A stretch of DNA of 61,763 nt, from the sequence record SRR33789315_30. The stretch is one strand, 5' to 3'. The position numbers and the translations under genes were made by a program. Below, piece after piece: positions 1 to 7,651 of this stretch. The notes under the pieces were generated by a model. The model ran no database searches and was not told where the DNA came from. It saw nothing but the letters and a program-made list of their open reading frames with translations. How positions within the stretch are numbered: position 1 is the stretch's first letter; every line of letters starts with the position of its first letter.

Positions 1-1330
1 CTCCATAAAGTGTATCAAGTAAGGCTACTTTGGCTTCTATTTGCTTGCCATAAATATTTCTATAATGCTCTCCCCAGATAGATTCGAACAGTTCAGATTT
101 TTTGGTTTCATCTATAGAATATATAGAAGTTTTTACTGTTTTAGGAAGATTTTCTACGACAGCTTCTGGAATCTTTGGCTCTTCTACTGGTTGAAAAATT
201 TGTCGGGTATATACTAATTTTGGTTGGTTATTTTCACCTGATCCAAAATAGCGTACCCAAGTCTCACCCTCTTTAAAAATATCAAGTACCGCAAAACCTT
301 GGCCACTATAAGCAAATAGGCCATCTCCACCCAAGACGGCATATGATGCCTTAGAACCAGATCCAGAAATAATTTGCTTCACTTCATCATGTTCTATATA
401 CTGTAAAGAGTGTTCATGGCCAGAAGCAAAAATGATTCTATGGTGATCATCTATTAATACTTTAAGACGCTTCATCAACTCGTTATATTTTTCATTATAA
501 CGGTCTTGCTTAGAAATACCCCCTTGAGTTCTTATTTGTGTGATAAGTGATGCAAAAATGGGAATAGGAATTTTCTTTTGAGATGGAAATAAATGTTTAG
601 TTATGGCAAATTTACCTCCATGTACACCATTTGTATACATAGGATGATGCATTGCTATAAGAACAGTTTTTTCTTGGTTTTTTTTTATCTCACCCTCTAA
701 CTCAAGAAAAAATTTCTCTCGGGTTTTAATGTTACATTTATCATTAATTTTTGGGTTTTTATCCCAATCTTCAAGATACCACTGTGTATCTATGATAATC
801 ATATGAACCTCGTCATCAATATCATAACTCACCAATGGACAACCATCTTCAGGTAAAAAAACTTTTTTATCTTTTAATTTACTCTGAAAATACTTTTCTT
901 GTCTTTGTAGCCCTTCTACCCCGTGATTATACCAATCATGATTGCCTGGAATAAAAATAACTTCGCCTTTATAATCTTTAACTGCATTGTACTGAATATC
1001 CAGCCTATATTCTGAAAGTGCTCTAGACTCACTTTCTTTTGGAGGCATACCTTCTGGATAGATATTATCTCCTAAAAAAAGAGTAAAATGATCATTATTA
1101 TTTTCTACAGAATCCAAATAGTTTTTAAGCACTTTAAGTCCTACAGTGCTTTCTCCCATCTGCGCATAGCCTGCATCACCAACAAGATAAAAGGTCTTTA
1201 CTGGATTCTTTGTTTTAGGATAAATCTCTATATCAGACTGCTTATCTTTATATAAAGGGATGTCATAAGTAGCACAAGAAGCAAAAATGAAGAAGCTGAA
1301 AAATGTTAGAACTATGTTATTTTTTGACAT
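1..1330 (-). CDS. Calcineurin-like metallophosphoesterase lipoprotein (5' part; runs off the left edge)
   Basis: Not in the ORF track. Reverse strand from ATG at 1330 reads MSKNNIVLTFFSFFIFASC (lipobox), then the metallophosphoesterase motifs YLVGDAG, FLGDNIY, IPGNHDW, HHPMY and SGHEH; appears open to the window edge. Confidence 0.85.
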   Translation of the reverse strand, partial: MSKNNIVLTFFSFFIFASCATYDIPLYKDKQSDIEIYPKTKNPVKTFYLVGDAGYAQMGESTVGLKVLKNYLDSVENNNDHFTLFLGDNIYPEGMPPKESESRALSEYRLDIQYNAVKDYKGEVIFIPGNHDWYNHGVEGLQRQEKYFQSKLKDKKVFLPEDGCPLVSYDIDDEVHMIIIDTQWYLEDWDKNPKINDKCNIKTREKFFLELEGEIKKNQEKTVLIAMHHPMYTNGVHGGKFAITKHLFPSQKKIPIPIFASLITQIRTQGGISKQDRYNEKYNELMKRLKVLIDDHHRIIFASGHEHSLQYIEHDEVKQIISGSGSKASYAVLGGDGLFAYSGQGFAVLDIFKEGETWVRYFGSGENNQPKLVYTRQIFQPVEEPKIPEAVVENLPKTVKTSIYSIDETKKSELFESIWGEHYRNIYGKQIEAKVALLDTLYG

Positions 1331-1386: not shown

Positions 1387-2592
1387 ATGGCTGAAATAGC
1401 AGAAGCTAAAATAGAGATAGTAGAAAAAGCTGATGACTTTGTTCTTCAATTGTTCAAGGAAAAACTTCCTAATTCCTACCTGTACCATAATTACAACCAT
1501 ACGTATAGAGTGGTTAAAAGTACTAAAGAAATTATCGAAAATACTGAATTAAATGTTAAACAGAAAGAAGCTGTACTGCTTGCTGCCTGGCTGCATGACA
1601 CGGGTTATAGTGAGACGTTGGCTGAACATGAAGAAGCCAGTATTAAAATAAGCGAAGAGTTTTTGCGATCACAACAAGTAGATAGTGATCAAATTGAATT
1701 AGTGTCTTCACTTATTAGATCTACAAAGATGAGTGTTGAGCCCAAAAACATTCTAGAATGGATATTGAATGATGCTGATGCCTCTCATTTTGCGAAAGAT
1801 CATTTTGATAGTACAAGTGAATTTTTAAGACAAGAATTAAATCTTACAGGTGTTGCATCTTATAGCCCTGAAGAATGGCTGGATGAAAACATCAAGATGT
1901 TTACTAATACGCATAGGTTTTATACAGATTATGCACTAAAGGAATGGAAGCCACAAAAAGATAAAAATCTTATTAATCTTATAGAAGCTAAGCAAAAAAT
2001 AGAAAAAAAACTAGTTAAAGAAAAAACTAAAGCTAAACTAAAGGCCAAGTATAAAGACGAAAGCCCAGATAGAGGAATACAAACGGTATTTAGAACCACC
2101 CTCCGTAATCATATTAAATTAAGTGATATTGCCGATACGAAGGCGAATATTTTGCTGTCTGTTAATGCAATTATTATCTCTTTTGCTTTAGCAAACGTAA
2201 TTCCTAAGTTAGATTCACCTACTAATAGGCATTTAATGTTACCTACGTTGATTTTAGTTCTCTTTAGCGTAGCCTCTATAATTATGTCTATCCTATCTAC
2301 ACGTCCCAATATTACCAGTGGTGAGTTTACTCGTGAACAAGTCTTAAAAAGACAGGTTAATATCCTCTTCTTTGGTAATTTTCATAAAATGGAATATGAT
2401 GATTACAAATGGGCTATGAATGAAATTATTAGAGATAAGGATTATATATACGAAGCTCTAACTAAGGATTTATACTTATTAGGAATTGTCCTAAACAAAA
2501 AATATATGCTTTTACGTAAAACATATATTGTATTTATGACAGGAATTATAATCTCGGTTTTGAGTTATATATTAGCTTTTTGGTTAATTTAA
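1387..2592 (+). CDS. HD-domain protein fused to a Pycsar-type transmembrane effector domain (DUF5706/PycTM-like)
   Basis: N-terminal HD motifs YHNYNHT, WLHDTG, HEE, DAD. C-terminal IADTKANILLSVN, TM helices, LFFGNF, and KKY..LR..Y..F..G plus a terminal TM helix match the PycTM family. Confidence 0.85.
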   Translation: MAEIAEAKIEIVEKADDFVLQLFKEKLPNSYLYHNYNHTYRVVKSTKEIIENTELNVKQKEAVLLAAWLHDTGYSETLAEHEEASIKISEEFLRSQQVDSDQIELVSSLIRSTKMSVEPKNILEWILNDADASHFAKDHFDSTSEFLRQELNLTGVASYSPEEWLDENIKMFTNTHRFYTDYALKEWKPQKDKNLINLIEAKQKIEKKLVKEKTKAKLKAKYKDESPDRGIQTVFRTTLRNHIKLSDIADTKANILLSVNAIIISFALANVIPKLDSPTNRHLMLPTLILVLFSVASIIMSILSTRPNITSGEFTREQVLKRQVNILFFGNFHKMEYDDYKWAMNEIIRDKDYIYEALTKDLYLLGIVLNKKYMLLRKTYIVFMTGIIISVLSYILAFWLI

Positions 2593-4962
2593 AACTTTCA
2601 TTAATTCTTCATAGGTAACATTAGCAGTTCTAGATTTCTTTATTTTAGTCTCATAGTTATATACGACTTCAACTCTAAGAGCTCTTAACCCGACTACACC
2701 TTGAACATCTTCAAGTTTTACATCTTCTACCGTATTGCCTAAATAATTTTTGAATTGTAAATATTTAATATAGCGCATATATTCTTCTGCATCACTATCT
2801 TGAGTATATACAATAGCTATTTTACCCTTTTGTGTAATACGTTCTGTAGTGCCACTTATAAAAGCCTTATCAATACGTTTTTTTATAATCTCATATCTTG
2901 CATTGTAAGAACCATCTATATCAAATTTCTTTTCATCCATTCTATATCTTATAGTCAACGTCCTACTATATACTAAAATTAAAGATGCCGCATCTAAATG
3001 AAAGGTATCATCTTTTTGTATTTGATAGAAATGATTTTCCATTTCACACATAGTACTCAATTGCCATAACCTTAAGTTATACAAATAGATCTCGCTAAAT
3101 TTTTCTGAACGGGTCATAGACTCGCCTATATACATATTATGATCTACACCATCTGTTTTATAACGTTCAAAATAATGCGGGTATTTTTTTTGCGCATCTT
3201 GTTGTTTATTATCTATAAATGTTGCTAGATTCAAGTTGATTTTCTCAACTATTTCATCGTAAGTTTTTCTATGATCATATATTAAACCTGAATCCTTATT
3301 GATTGCCGCCTTATAATTATCTATTGTATGAGAAAGTTCATAAAACTTAGATTTTAAATGGTTTAGAAAAGGATTAACCTCATTTTGCAATAATTTTATT
3401 ACTTCAGATTCACTCGATGCGCTCAAATGATCTGAAATAGAATCGGTATACTCACTTACTCTAAATAAAACCTGCTCATAAATAGGTAACGGATTTAACT
3501 TAAAAGCTAGTTTTAAGATATCACTCACCATATTCAATTGCATGAGAATATCCTTTTGTATCGCTTTATTACGTTGTTCAGAAGAACCTATCATATCTAT
3601 CTGCCCATATAAAGGATATACGTCGTTAAAAGCAATATCCCTAAATGCAGCAAACCTACCCATGCCCTGTAATGCGATAAATCTTCTGGCTTCCCGTTCA
3701 AACACCCATAGTACACTAGGATGAATACTGGTACATTCACTTTGTATTACAGCCTTAATGCGGTTCTGTTTTTGATAACGCATTCTCTCAATTGTAGACA
3801 CAATATATGGCGTAACATCATCAAGCTTTATCGCATTAATGCTATGCAACTCGTTTTTTCTAATAGAAACTATTTCTAAAACGGCTAATAGCTTTTTCCC
3901 TTTTGCCAATGGAGCCAGAATACAACTTTTTATGCCTTTTGCAAGTAAATTCTCAGATAGAAGATTATAATCTGTATTAACGGCATAAGCTTCAACATCT
4001 GCAATACTAAAATAAGTCTTCTCAATGACTAAGGCATTGTAAGCATCTTTACATAATAAGGTGTTGCATTTATGCTTATTTTCTTTATCAAGAATATAAC
4101 TGGAAGCAAAATCTTTATCCATTTTAATAAAGCTTCTGTCCTCAAAATTAAGTTCGGTAAACCCTACTTTAAGATCAGCTATGTCAAATATTGATCTGAA
4201 AATTTCTTCAAATTTGGGATAACCATTAAGGTTATCTATATCGCTTTGACTAAGGAGATTACTTTTAAGTTCAGAAATAGCATCATCAATAGTAACATCT
4301 GTTAAAGTAAGAATTGTTAAACCTCGCATTACCCAACTATTAGGTGGAAAATATTTTTTCCAAAGGGTAATATTGTCAAAATTCTGAATTAATTCCTTAA
4401 ACATCTCACTAGTAACATCCACTGCCTGATCTGTAGGTTCTAATGTCACAAAATCATAATTCATCGTTATACGATAATGACGCAGTAAACCATTTTTTTC
4501 AGGAATATCATAATAAAGGGGCTTATTAAGATCAATATTATAGCCATAATAATTATTCAAAATTACTACACACGTATAGATGTAATAGGTCTCGTCATCA
4601 AAATTCCTGATTTCCAATTCAAAATCAGGTCCAGCATTTTCTAATATAGAAGAAAAATGCTGTGTAGGATTAAAAATAACATTATGAAATGGTATACATG
4701 CGGCCTTTATCTCATTTGCCGAAAGTGCAGCAGGAAACAAATTTTCTAAAATAAGATGAATGGGCTCTACATACTTTTCTAATTCTTTAAAATCTGAAAC
4801 ACCATCTATTAACTCAGGAAAAGATTGAGCATACCCCAACATAGACTCCATATACGATTTTAAAAAATCTGTATCAGAATTTTTAATTCTAGATATTAGT
4901 TTATCCACAATTTTATACAGACTAAACTTAATCTGTACAGGAAACTCTTCAGCCTTTTTCAT
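2584..4962 (-). CDS. GAF domain-containing protein with a putative divergent class III nucleotidyl-cyclase C-terminal domain
   Basis: GAF signature GIKSCILAPL...LLAVLEIVS. C-terminal LYGQIDMIGSS, RYKTDGVDHNMYIG, FDIDGSYNAR and GKIAIVY follow class III cyclase motif order (cyclase call is inference). Confidence 0.7.
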   Translation of the reverse strand: MKKAEEFPVQIKFSLYKIVDKLISRIKNSDTDFLKSYMESMLGYAQSFPELIDGVSDFKELEKYVEPIHLILENLFPAALSANEIKAACIPFHNVIFNPTQHFSSILENAGPDFELEIRNFDDETYYIYTCVVILNNYYGYNIDLNKPLYYDIPEKNGLLRHYRITMNYDFVTLEPTDQAVDVTSEMFKELIQNFDNITLWKKYFPPNSWVMRGLTILTLTDVTIDDAISELKSNLLSQSDIDNLNGYPKFEEIFRSIFDIADLKVGFTELNFEDRSFIKMDKDFASSYILDKENKHKCNTLLCKDAYNALVIEKTYFSIADVEAYAVNTDYNLLSENLLAKGIKSCILAPLAKGKKLLAVLEIVSIRKNELHSINAIKLDDVTPYIVSTIERMRYQKQNRIKAVIQSECTSIHPSVLWVFEREARRFIALQGMGRFAAFRDIAFNDVYPLYGQIDMIGSSEQRNKAIQKDILMQLNMVSDILKLAFKLNPLPIYEQVLFRVSEYTDSISDHLSASSESEVIKLLQNEVNPFLNHLKSKFYELSHTIDNYKAAINKDSGLIYDHRKTYDEIVEKINLNLATFIDNKQQDAQKKYPHYFERYKTDGVDHNMYIGESMTRSEKFSEIYLYNLRLWQLSTMCEMENHFYQIQKDDTFHLDAASLILVYSRTLTIRYRMDEKKFDIDGSYNARYEIIKKRIDKAFISGTTERITQKGKIAIVYTQDSDAEEYMRYIKYLQFKNYLGNTVEDVKLEDVQGVVGLRALRVEVVYNYETKIKKSRTANVTYEELMKVLN

Positions 4963-5154
4963 AGAGGGTAATTATAGATGAATATAAACCAAAAATTATA
5001 TAATAAATATTTTTGTTCATATATTTAACAGTGATTTATATTCCACATTACAATTCTCCTAATTTCCTCCCAAATTATCATATTCTAGTGGTTAATATAC
5101 CTTAAAAAGAATTTGTTTTTATGGTATATTGCAGTCTAAATAAATATAAATAAT

Positions 5155-6294
5155 ATGTCACGTATTTTAAGCCTTTTACTCCTACTCACGCTATTTATAT
5201 CTTGTGAAAAGAATGAAAATTACACCATAGAAGGTACCCTAGAAAATGTTGAAGATGGTACAGCAATTTACTTACAAGAAATAGATGAAAACAATAGACT
5301 TGCCAACGTAGATACCACTCAAGTACTAGCTGGTAAATTTAATTTCACACCAGAGAATGTAGCTAGCCCTAACATCAATATAATTACTGTTGATAAGATA
5401 AATAACGGTAGATTGATTTTTATTGCCGAAAATCAAAAAATAAAAATCACCTTAAATAAGGATAGTTTATATATCTCTAAAGTGCGCGGTGGTGCAGAGA
5501 ACGATTTCTTCAAGACCTACTACGATGAAGTAGTAGATGTAAATAAAGAAAAACAACGTCTACAAACCGATGGTATGAATGCCATGAGAAATGGCGATAC
5601 CGAACAAGTAGAGGTTATTAAAAATGAATTAAAGCAAATAGATGAAATTGCAAGGGATAAACGTATAGAATTAATACAAGCTCATCCTGAATCTCACGTT
5701 TCTGTAATTATATTAACAGATTTAATCGGATTAAAACAGATTAAGGCAGATAAAGCAGAAGCTCTTTTTGAAAGCTTAGATAGTCAAGTTAAGGAAACAG
5801 AAAAAGGAAAAAAATTAAGCGAAATGATCGCTAAATTTAAATCTACAGAAATAGCCTCTACACTAGTTGAAGTAGGGAATAAGGCTCCTAATTTTAGTGC
5901 ACCTCAACCAGATGGTACCGTTCTCGCTCTAAATAGCGCTTTAGGAAAGTATACCATTATTGATTTTTGGGCCAGTTGGTGTAAGCCTTGCCGTGTTGAA
6001 AACCCGAACGTAGTAGCAGCTTATGAAAAATTTCATGATAAGGGATTAAATATCCTAAGTGTTTCTCTAGACAAACCTAATGACAAAGAAAAATGGGTTA
6101 AAGCTATTAAAGATGACAACATGAACTGGAATCACGTATCAAATCTACAATACTGGCAAGATCCTATTGCAAAGCAATTTGGTGTAAGAGCTATCCCTGC
6201 AACATTTTTATTAGATGAAAACGGCGTAATTATTGAAAAAGATCTTCGCGGAAAAGATCTTCAAGACAAATTAGAAAGTCTTTTAGGAGTATAA
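5155..6294 (+). CDS. TlpA/AhpC-TSA family thiol-disulfide oxidoreductase lipoprotein (DUF4369-type N-terminus)
   Basis: Lipobox FISC; C-terminal thioredoxin fold with DFWASWCKPCR and IPATFLLD. Confidence 0.9.
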   Translation: MSRILSLLLLLTLFISCEKNENYTIEGTLENVEDGTAIYLQEIDENNRLANVDTTQVLAGKFNFTPENVASPNINIITVDKINNGRLIFIAENQKIKITLNKDSLYISKVRGGAENDFFKTYYDEVVDVNKEKQRLQTDGMNAMRNGDTEQVEVIKNELKQIDEIARDKRIELIQAHPESHVSVIILTDLIGLKQIKADKAEALFESLDSQVKETEKGKKLSEMIAKFKSTEIASTLVEVGNKAPNFSAPQPDGTVLALNSALGKYTIIDFWASWCKPCRVENPNVVAAYEKFHDKGLNILSVSLDKPNDKEKWVKAIKDDNMNWNHVSNLQYWQDPIAKQFGVRAIPATFLLDENGVIIEKDLRGKDLQDKLESLLGV

Positions 6295-6322
6295 CACATC
6301 CTATATAATAAGTATAGAAACT

Positions 6323-6353
6323 AAAAAATCCCGCATCTAACGGGATTTTTTTT
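6323..6353. terminator. Bidirectional intrinsic terminator
   Basis: AAAAAATCCCG-CATCTAA-CGGGATTTTTTTT between convergent genes. Confidence 0.85.
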
Positions 6354-6397
6354 ACTTTTTATATTTGGTAATATTATTCTTTATCTAATAAAGGAAA

Positions 6398-7651
6398 CTA
6401 CATTGTAGCTTCAACACCAGCAGATAATCGTTTATAAGTTCCATTTTCTAGTCGCTCTCTAATTGCAGAAAAAGCTTCTAGTGTAACTTCTACATCCTCT
6501 AATGTATGTGATGCTGTAGGAATCATTCTTAATAGAATTAGTCCTTTAGGAATTACAGGATACACAACTATAGAGCAGAATATGCCAAAGTTTTCGCGTA
6601 AATCTTTAACTAAAGCCATAGCTTCAGGTATGCTTCCTTGAAGATATACAGGCGTTACACAACTCTGTGTAGTACCTATATCAAAACCACGTGACTTTAA
6701 ACCACCTTGAAGCGCATTTACGTTCTCCCATAATTTTGCTTTAAGTTCTGGCATCGTACGCAACATATCTAAACGCTTTAAAGCACCAACAACAAGTTGC
6801 ATTTGCAAGGACTTAGCAAACATTTGTGAACGTAAATTATATTTTAAATAATCTATTATCTCTTGATCTGCAGCTATAAATGCTCCGGTACTTGCCATAG
6901 ATTTAGCAAAAGTAGCAAAATAGACATCTATCTCATCCTGAACACCTTGCTCCTCACCTGCTCCAGCACCTGTTGCACCTAAAGTTCCAAAACCGTGTGC
7001 GTCATCAACAAATAAGCGGAAATTATATTTTTTCTTTAAAGCAACTATATCTTTCAACTTGCCTTGCTCTCCTCGCATTCCAAAAACACCTTCAGAGATC
7101 AATAAAATACCACCTCCCGTTTGTTCTGCTAATTTAGTAGCACGTTGCAAGTTTTTTTCAATACTCTCTACATCATTATGCTTATAGGTAAATCGTTTAC
7201 CCATATGTAAACGTACACCATCAATAATACAAGCATGAGCATCTACATCATAAACAATAATATCGTCTTTTGACACCAATGCATCCACTGTAGATACCAT
7301 ACCTTGGTATCCAAAGTTTAATAAATAAGTGGCTTCTTTTTTAACAAAAGCAGCTAGTTCATTTTGAAGTTGTTCATGAAGTTCTGTATGACCACTCATC
7401 ATTCTTGCTCCCATTGGGTACGCAGATCCATAAGCTGCAGCAGCTTCTGCATCTACTTTACGTACTTCGGGATGATTAGCAAGTCCTAAGTAATCATTTA
7501 TACTCCAAGTAACGACTTCTTTACCTTGGAATTTCATTCGGTTAGAAATAGGACCTTCTAGCTTAGGAAATACAAAATATCCTTCTGCTTGTTCTGCCCA
7601 TCTACCTAAAGGACCTTTATCCCTGTAAATTTTATCGAATAAATCTCTCAT
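6398..7651 (-). CDS. capB: PLP-dependent alpha-oxoamine synthase; probable cysteate:fatty acyl transferase (CapB/SulA-type, capnine biosynthesis)
   Basis: AONS/SPT-family motifs NDYLGLA, HACIIDG, DDAHGFG, TFAKS. N-terminus (DLF..I...KGPLG.W..QAEGYFVFPKLEG) resembles flavobacterial cysteate acyltransferases as I recall them; directly downstream of a cysteine-synthase-like gene. Confidence 0.7.
   Translation of the reverse strand: MRDLFDKIYRDKGPLGRWAEQAEGYFVFPKLEGPISNRMKFQGKEVVTWSINDYLGLANHPEVRKVDAEAAAAYGSAYPMGARMMSGHTELHEQLQNELAAFVKKEATYLLNFGYQGMVSTVDALVSKDDIIVYDVDAHACIIDGVRLHMGKRFTYKHNDVESIEKNLQRATKLAEQTGGGILLISEGVFGMRGEQGKLKDIVALKKKYNFRLFVDDAHGFGTLGATGAGAGEEQGVQDEIDVYFATFAKSMASTGAFIAADQEIIDYLKYNLRSQMFAKSLQMQLVVGALKRLDMLRTMPELKAKLWENVNALQGGLKSRGFDIGTTQSCVTPVYLQGSIPEAMALVKDLRENFGIFCSIVVYPVIPKGLILLRMIPTASHTLEDVEVTLEAFSAIRERLENGTYKRLSAGVEATM

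Follow-up and report, generated by a model that had tools for sequence, protein, structure and literature searches.

In the Pycsar and Pucsar systems, as outlined in PMC11224242 and in a preprint (10.64898/2026.08.12.744502), a cyclic nucleoside monophosphate (cNMP) produced by the PycC or PucC cyclase activates a membrane effector with three transmembrane helices (3TM), PycTM or PucTM. The same preprint contrasts 'physiological' cyclases with these systems, as cyclases without conflict-effector partners (10.64898/2026.08.12.744502). Here we focused on a gene (hereafter, P0001) in sequence record SRR33789315_30, a stretch of 61,763 nucleotides that is called the window throughout. Its product is predicted to share the catalytic fold and the sensor-linker-cyclase order of GAF- or phytochrome-gated class III cyclases (Cya2, 2W01; CyaB, 3R5G; CyaC, 1WC1; 6FHT) and, as in Pycsar and Pucsar, the gene of this cyclase-fold protein is adjacent and genetically tied to one for a three-helix membrane module of the PycTM family.

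Pycsar and Pucsar cyclases belong to the PycC/PucC clades, are encoded beside a PycTM (3TM) or CNBD-TIR effector gene, and are distributed sporadically, on mobile DNA and in defence islands. The locus nonetheless differs from Pycsar and Pucsar. Its 3TM module is preceded by an N-terminal HD hydrolase domain, and the cyclase-like protein is a GAF protein of ~790 amino acids (aa) that matches no PADLOC model. The pair is also syntenic and near-core, the P0001 family being present in 291 of the 401 sampled genomes of its bacterial family (Flavobacteriaceae), and it is accompanied by a metallophosphoesterase-Omp85 gene and housekeeping-type neighbours, with no defence island. Because there is no match to a PycC model, the distribution is near-core and syntenic, and the 3TM module is fused to HD, we do not regard the P0001 pair as a member of Pycsar or Pucsar. 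In a wider sample of the phylum Bacteroidota, the family was detected in 47 of 301 genomes.

Domain layout of P0001 and its family

The gene and the regions of its product are as follows.

2584-4962, minus strand: whole gene P0001, an open reading frame (ORF) of 792 aa; the product is cytoplasmic, and its N-terminal domain is followed by a GAF domain, by linker helices and by a class III cyclase-like domain that is split
4243-4962, minus strand: N-terminal alpha/beta region, residues 1-240 (secondary structure of the full-length model)
3814-4230, minus strand: GAF domain, residues ~245-383 (Pfam GAF/GAF_2 on homologs at the equivalent place, and fold matches)
3664-3813, minus strand: linker helices between the GAF and cyclase-like domains, residues 384-433 (helices 384-409 and 415-433 of the model)
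3586-3636, minus strand: first strand(s) of the cyclase-like domain, residues 443-459 (strands 443-450 and 454-458 of the full-length model; strand 9-23 of the C-terminal model)
3184-3585, minus strand: five-helix insertion, residues 460-593 (helices 25-54, 58-76, 80-104, 106-118 and 129-158 of the C-terminal model)
2665-3183, minus strand: main part of the cyclase-like domain, residues 594-766 (secondary structure, fold matches and conservation)

The region singled out by the initial annotation (2660-3620) lies entirely within this ORF. No hydrophobic segment was found in P0001, which places the protein in the cytoplasm. The N-terminal residues 1-240 have no Pfam match; this region is possibly a PAS-like domain, as the full-length model aligns with the PAS-GAF-PHY modules of phytochromes. 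The initial annotation of this DNA, made from the sequence alone, had named the product a GAF-domain protein. Pfam (E<=10) reports no GAF domain in P0001 itself and NCBIfam is equally silent, and to that extent the name lacks a profile match; it is supported by the homologs, in which Pfam does find the domain (23.7 bits in P0131 for a cut-off of 22.4, and GAF_2 with an E value of 1.4e-09 in an ORF of locus L144), and by matches of the full-length model to the GAF domain structures 3w2z and 6ozb, with template modelling (TM) scores of 0.59-0.63 by target.

The family is large, with 817 matches among 90% clusters, most of them named 'GAF domain-containing protein'. Clustering at 50% gave 814 clusters at E<=1e-30, nearly all of ~790 aa and matching end to end. 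Homologs shorter than 435 aa were considered as stand-alone cyclase domains and rejected, as they are contig-end fragments. A frame of 1383 aa in one genome (G037) has no extra Pfam domain; the genome is GC-rich, and the added length is most likely an open upstream frame only.

A precomputed label, PF27174 'YeeD' (Pfam 38.1), is carried by most family members, by C-terminal fragments of 300-430 aa and by two Atlas clusters. Since these fragments bear it as well, the entry must cover some part of residues 436-792, and its curators may have noted the cyclase fold already. Our literature search found no paper on PF27174, on PycTM with an HD domain, on DUF5706, or on insertion-bearing class III or GAF domain cyclases of Bacteroidetes. 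The text of the preprint that was available, Table S1 apart, makes no mention of GAF, Bacteroid-, Flavobacter-, polyphosphate or phosphodiesterase (10.64898/2026.08.12.744502).

The class V adenylate cyclase of Prevotella ruminicola, from the same phylum, is to our knowledge an orphan class with no assigned fold. It is shorter than the proteins of the P0001 family. The two may be the same, which we offer as a lead and not as a claim. Accession AAC12946.1 and Cotta et al. 1998 are given for this enzyme in PMC10427991.

The C-terminal domain is predicted to adopt a class III cyclase fold

To reveal the fold of the C-terminal part, residues 436-792 were modelled with AlphaFold2 from 130 diverse sequences of 34-67% identity. 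The resulting model has a predicted local distance difference test (pLDDT) score of 94.9 and a predicted TM-score of 0.89. A fold search of the PDB with this model retrieved class III nucleotidyl cyclases only, in all 38 of the matches listed, with TM-scores of 0.45-0.60 normalised to single-domain targets and with eight matches at E<=0.001. Among them are Cya2 (2w01, E 1.1e-04), CyaB (3r5g, TM 0.60 by target over 332 columns), CyaC, soluble and receptor guanylate cyclases, AC9, sAC, Rv1625c, Rv1900c and a trypanosomal cyclase. A Pycsar-type uridylate cyclase (8jsz) ranks 30 among the matches listed, and GGDEF, Cas10 and polymerase palm domains do not occur among these 38. The full-length AlphaFold2 model (pLDDT 79.9, from 24 sequences) had its best match in a phytochrome-adenylate/guanylate cyclase chimera (6fht, E 2.3e-07, 695 columns), followed by PAS-GAF-PHY modules, DosP and a phytochrome diguanylate cyclase. 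As modelled, the C-terminal domain of P0001 has the fold of class III cyclases, and this prediction agrees with the central proposal of the initial annotation.

That proposal was built on six motif strings, all of which are present in the translation of 2587-4962 (minus strand), in the order and at the places that had been implied.

3580-3612, minus strand: LYGQIDMIGSS, residues 451-461
3124-3165, minus strand: RYKTDGVDHNMYIG, residues 600-613
Residues 656-665, minus strand: LDAASLILVY
Residues 678-696, minus strand: KKFDIDGSYNARYEIIKKR
Residues 712-719, minus strand: KGKIAIVY
Residues 750-764, minus strand: LEDVQGVVGLRALRV

As bare strings these motifs do not rise above chance statistically. 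Their order agrees with the secondary structure of the confident model, in which each motif lies on the expected element. The model starts with the strand(s) ending at D456, continues with the five helices (460-593) and a hairpin with D604-G605 in its turn, and then runs through a helix, a hairpin, a strand, the helix from A688, a strand, a helix and two strands. In its main part (594-766) are the K602-T603-D604-G605 hairpin, the FDxDG..N687.R689 strand-helix, the K694/R696/K699 residues and the KIAIVY strand; in the C-terminal model, FDIDG is a strand with the helix from A688 after it, and KIAIVY is likewise a strand.

The two Asp that had been proposed as metal ligands are encoded at 3595-3597 (D456) and 3151-3153 (D604), and are 148 residues apart in the translation, as stated by the initial annotation. 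Across the family this spacing is 141-150 residues (median 148), compared with 44 in 29 and 45 in one of 30 canonical domains, and with 44 in EaPycC, where the metal Asp pair is D102/D146 (PMC11224242). The difference implies that the five-helix insert has an excess of ~100 residues, and the near-constant distance between the two Asp indicates that the insertion is a fixed feature of the family. Fold alignments of ~330 columns bridge it, and its outermost helices, the first and the last, are the probable counterparts of the canonical alpha1 and alpha2. The model fold, the Asp spacing and the silent profiles together support the earlier suggestion that a helical insert of ~100 residues hides a class III cyclase fold from profile searches.

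The sequence-profile searches were uniformly negative. P0001 had no match to cyclase families of Pfam (PF00211 included) or NCBIfam even at E<=10, and PADLOC reported no cyclase match and no family at E<=1. When the family profile was compared by hhalign with 30 bona fide PF00211 domains of Bacteroidota, the probability was <1% in all five variants, insertion kept or removed; removal of the insertion columns, a check of the kind that the initial annotation had proposed, failed to bring out a cyclase match. A sequence-profile search of the PDB gave chance-level matches only, to apolipoprotein A-IV on the helical insert (E 0.0025) and to UPF0166.

Conservation and the active-site frame

The conservation of the candidate active site was profiled in an alignment of 267 family sequences (254 unique), composed of 130 representatives and the ORFs from the analysed loci, among them 13 unlinked paralogs and 9 linked members, all of them distant. 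D456, S460, D471, Q591, P595, D604, G605, G613, K694, R696 and K699 are invariant, and the two candidate metal Asp thus pass the homolog comparison that had been suggested for them (each 267/267). F680, G684 and R708 are conserved in 266 of the 267 sequences, D681 in 263, N687 in 261 and R689 in 250; acidic residues (Asp or Glu) occupy position 607 in 265, and Ser or Thr occupies position 461 in 264. In the models D456 ends strand 1 and is followed by S460 and S/T461 as the phosphate loop, as expected for the first metal Asp of a class III cyclase.

The insertion-deleted hhalign alignment served as a weak check of the frame only, being itself non-significant. In it, D456 matches the first Asp of the canonical domains and S460-S461 match their ensuing 'FT', and K602-T603-x-G605...G613 aligns without gaps to the canonical K-T-I-G...(+8)G. 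The second Asp of canonical domains follows immediately on the Gly of the K-T-I-G-D hairpin, ~44 residues beyond the first. In P0001 this position is V606, and the acidic residues of the family flank the Gly, D604 preceding it and D/E607 following. Judged from the sequences, a functional equivalent of the canonical second Asp is likely present in the family. Relative to PF00211, the domain agrees in the fold (a palm-like beta-alpha-beta-beta-alpha-beta core) and departs in the sequence profile and in the position of the second Asp. Class III cyclases convert an NTP to a cNMP and pyrophosphate; their two Asp are neighbours at a two-metal site, and their active sites are shared in a head-to-tail dimer.

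In class III cyclases a pair of the Lys...Asp type specifies adenine. The initial annotation had mapped the base-specifying Lys to an Arg (R600); in the K-T-x-G...(+8)G frame, the canonical Lys corresponds instead to K602, which is Lys in 223 of the 267 sequences. As K602...D681 is a pair of the adenine type, cAMP would be the first guess for the product, within a weak frame. F680-D681-x-x-G684 corresponds to the canonical Y-D-x-W-G. The stretch behind it was not aligned by hhalign and was read by eye against the consensus, which puts the Asn one residue early and the Arg three early. N687 stands at the helix start, with R689 two residues on and the invariant K694 and R696 further along. The canonical transition-state Asn and Arg lie four residues, or one turn, from each other on helix 4 (N-x-x-x-R); the initial annotation had likewise noted a non-canonical spacing of the two.

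The family and the described class III cyclases thus have in common an acidic end of strand 1 with a Ser/Thr phosphate loop, the K-T-x-G...(+8)G frame and the FDxxG...N.A.R.E strand-helix. They differ in that the P0001 family has no detectable profile similarity, a spacing of 148 versus 44 residues between the Asp, a second Asp shifted around the Gly, Asn and Arg two instead of four residues apart, and an extra, unexplained N-terminal domain of ~240 residues.

Genetic linkage to an HD-PycTM membrane protein

The gene facing P0001 is the PycTM-type partner.

1387-2592, plus strand: HD-PycTM neighbour, 401 aa, convergent with the P0001 gene, the 3' ends overlapping by 9 nt

It encodes an HD phosphohydrolase domain (Pfam HD, E 2.5e-07) fused to a PycTM-type three-helix membrane module (Pfam PycTM, 4.3e-34; PADLOC PycTM, 7.1e-18), with three hydrophobic segments. 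Of 107 orthologs, 104 retain an intact HD metal signature, and the other three are gapped. As a side observation, many Bacteroidota genomes encode the two halves, HD and PycTM, in separate ORFs of ~200 aa, sometimes adjacent to each other (e.g., G242:C89:2997-4176), so that the fused HD-3TM protein is one of the forms that this variable pair takes.

Among 80 loci of close relatives, HD-PycTM is adjacent to the family gene in 77, and the three misses are contig ends; linkage cannot be separated from plain synteny here, as all neighbours are syntenic in these genomes. In the phylum sample, HD-PycTM is adjacent in 23 of 30 loci with 1.5-kb flanks (on the same strand in L102 and L105), compared with only three for the AhpC-type gene that lies on the other side of P0001. 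In nine genomes the family gene and HD-PycTM are 1-13 kb apart on one contig, in a recurrent set composed of HD-PycTM, an SdiA-regulated/phytase-like propeller protein of ~290 aa, the metallophosphoesterase-Omp85 gene and the family gene. This cluster is co-directional and tightly spaced in L163-L165, and in two of these loci (L164, 1831-3873; L165, 1716-3770) a polyphosphate kinase with all four PPK1 domains lies between HD-PycTM and the SdiA-regulated-like propeller. An HD-PycTM-type match (E<=1e-20) was detected in all 47 family-positive genomes and in 86 of the 254 others, with some of the matches covering one half of the protein.

A direct fusion was found in a Flavobacterium difficile cluster (11 members, 968-974 aa), in which an HD domain is joined to the C-terminus of the family protein. 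Fusion residues 774-968 align with residues 11-209 of the HD-PycTM neighbour at 36% identity (E 7e-36). A second candidate, P0404, with the JGI name 'HD superfamily hydrolase', was rejected as a fragment without an HD domain. The family gene is thus linked to HD-PycTM by neighbourhood, by a recurrent cluster, by co-occurrence and, in one lineage, by fusion. Other distant members are unlinked, including second copies in genomes G001 and G044, and are read as paralogs. In the Leeuwenhoekiella genome G001 (L162, G001:C1:2857000-2873000, and L081-L083), this second paralog without linkage to HD-PycTM comes in addition to three PycTM-bearing ORFs, two of ~410-420 aa and one of 184 aa.

A proposed cyclic-nucleotide circuit and the alternatives

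We propose, with a probability of roughly 0.6, that P0001 is a sensor-regulated and probably active cyclase that feeds a housekeeping cyclic-nucleotide circuit. The N-terminal and GAF domains would control the C-terminal class III-type cyclase domain through the linker helices. The connection from strand 1 to hairpin 2-3 has expanded into five helices, an insert whose size stays constant. The cyclase-like domain may bind a nucleoside triphosphate (NTP) and two metal ions via D456 and D604 (or D/E607), and would cyclise the NTP to a 3',5'-cNMP, for which cAMP is the first guess. This cNMP would act on, or be hydrolysed by, the adjoining HD-PycTM membrane protein, in a housekeeping circuit that may also travel with the outer-membrane metallophosphoesterase.

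Several observations weigh against this proposal. Support at the sequence level is nil, with Pfam, NCBIfam, PADLOC and hhalign all lacking a cyclase match, and the Foldseek E values behind the fold assignment are modest (1e-04 to 1e-02), with root-mean-square deviations of 5-8 A and a search without a negative control. The catalytic geometry is non-canonical, in both the displaced second Asp of the K-T-x-G frame and the two-residue spacing of N687 and R689 in place of four. On the genetic side, HD-PycTM was detected in only two of 20 more distant loci with 6-kb flanks, and about half of the distant members lack the linkage. The co-occurrence of HD-PycTM and the family is confounded by shared ancestry. 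HD-PycTM is also wider than the family (133 versus 47 of the 301 genomes), and is therefore not dependent on it. In the window the two genes are convergent and so are not co-transcribed.

The irregular geometry could also mean that the domain is a pseudo-cyclase, which has the class III fold and perhaps binds a nucleotide, yet works as a regulatory or scaffolding module without catalysis. The lack of any profile similarity to active cyclases fits this as well, as does the place of the insert, since the connection between strand 1 and the hairpin forms part of the dimer and active-site surroundings in canonical class III domains. Degenerate domains usually lose their catalytic residues, however, and here both Asp, S460 and three Lys/Arg are fixed, and D681, N687 and R689 nearly always kept, in 267 sequences reaching down to ~33% identity and including unlinked paralogs; the insert length is tightly conserved too. 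We consider loss of catalysis unlikely on this evidence. The domain could also be an active palm-type nucleotidyltransferase of another chemistry, making a cyclic dinucleotide or a linear oligonucleotide, or cleaving pyrophosphate from NTP. The divergent active-site spacing and the unique insert leave the product open, and the partners are phosphohydrolases (HD and metallophosphoesterase), joined in two lineages by a polyphosphate kinase, which fits general phosphate or nucleotide metabolism. The listed fold matches of the C-terminal model are nevertheless all mononucleotide cyclases (38 of 38), with DosP and the phytochrome diguanylate cyclase appearing only for the full-length model, and the PycTM-type partners so far known respond to cNMPs (PMC11224242; 10.64898/2026.08.12.744502), which makes a different product distinctly improbable. 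Finally, the motifs alone are statistically insignificant, and their resemblance could be due to chance in a region that is not of cyclase type at all. It is hard to reconcile this with a high-confidence model that retrieves class III cyclases only, with motifs on the expected elements and with invariant candidate metal Asp, and we give it very little credence.

If the proposed cyclase is active, it would add a widespread and so far uncounted enzyme to the second-messenger inventories of Flavobacteriaceae and other Bacteroidota. The family illustrates how a class III domain can escape Pfam-type profiles through a constant insert of ~100 residues. It also provides a chromosomal partner outside defence for the PycTM/3TM proteins, which are known from defence by abortive infection, and through this partner both cyclic-nucleotide sensing by these membrane modules and the origin of the defence systems become testable. 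The linkage to a PycTM-type membrane protein points to an undescribed everyday second-messenger circuit in flavobacteria, and the set of partners (an HD hydrolase, an outer-membrane metallophosphoesterase and sometimes a polyphosphate kinase) suggests that cyclic-nucleotide signalling is linked there to phosphate or envelope physiology. A more far-reaching version, which we regard as doubtful, is a core-genome circuit of Bacteroidota in which a GAF-gated, insert-bearing cyclase of a new, profile-invisible structural class makes a cNMP that gates, or is cleared by, the inner-membrane HD-3TM protein, with ties to the outer-membrane phosphoesterase and polyphosphate; such a circuit might be a housekeeping relative, or even the source, of Pycsar and Pucsar.

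Other neighbouring genes and minor observations

Two further genes near P0001 were annotated.

2-1330, minus strand: N-terminus of a metallophosphoesterase-Omp85 protein, 443 aa of ~1200 (Pfam Metallophos), cut by the window start
5155-6294, plus strand: DUF4369 + AhpC/TSA thioredoxin-like protein, the divergent upstream neighbour, syntenic only in the closest relatives

The ORF at 2-1330 matches positions 7-435 of the cl0 model, which was built from full-length genes (Metallophos + Omp85), and its N-terminus resembles a lipoprotein signal that ends in Cys. The metallophosphoesterase-Omp85 gene is the third member of the conserved cluster and accompanies HD-PycTM and the cyclase-like gene in distant lineages. 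In one locus (L169, G228:C1:20000-27000), two ORFs flank the family gene and correspond to the first and the middle portion of the metallophosphoesterase-Omp85 gene, as if the latter were split around it (2615-7001); the family match in this genome contains a stop. Co-directional gene pairs were read through a stop in two genomes (G452 and G224) of the 401-genome sample. Within the window, the G+C content is ~0.38-0.41 at 32000-54000, compared with 0.31-0.35 in the first 30 kb.

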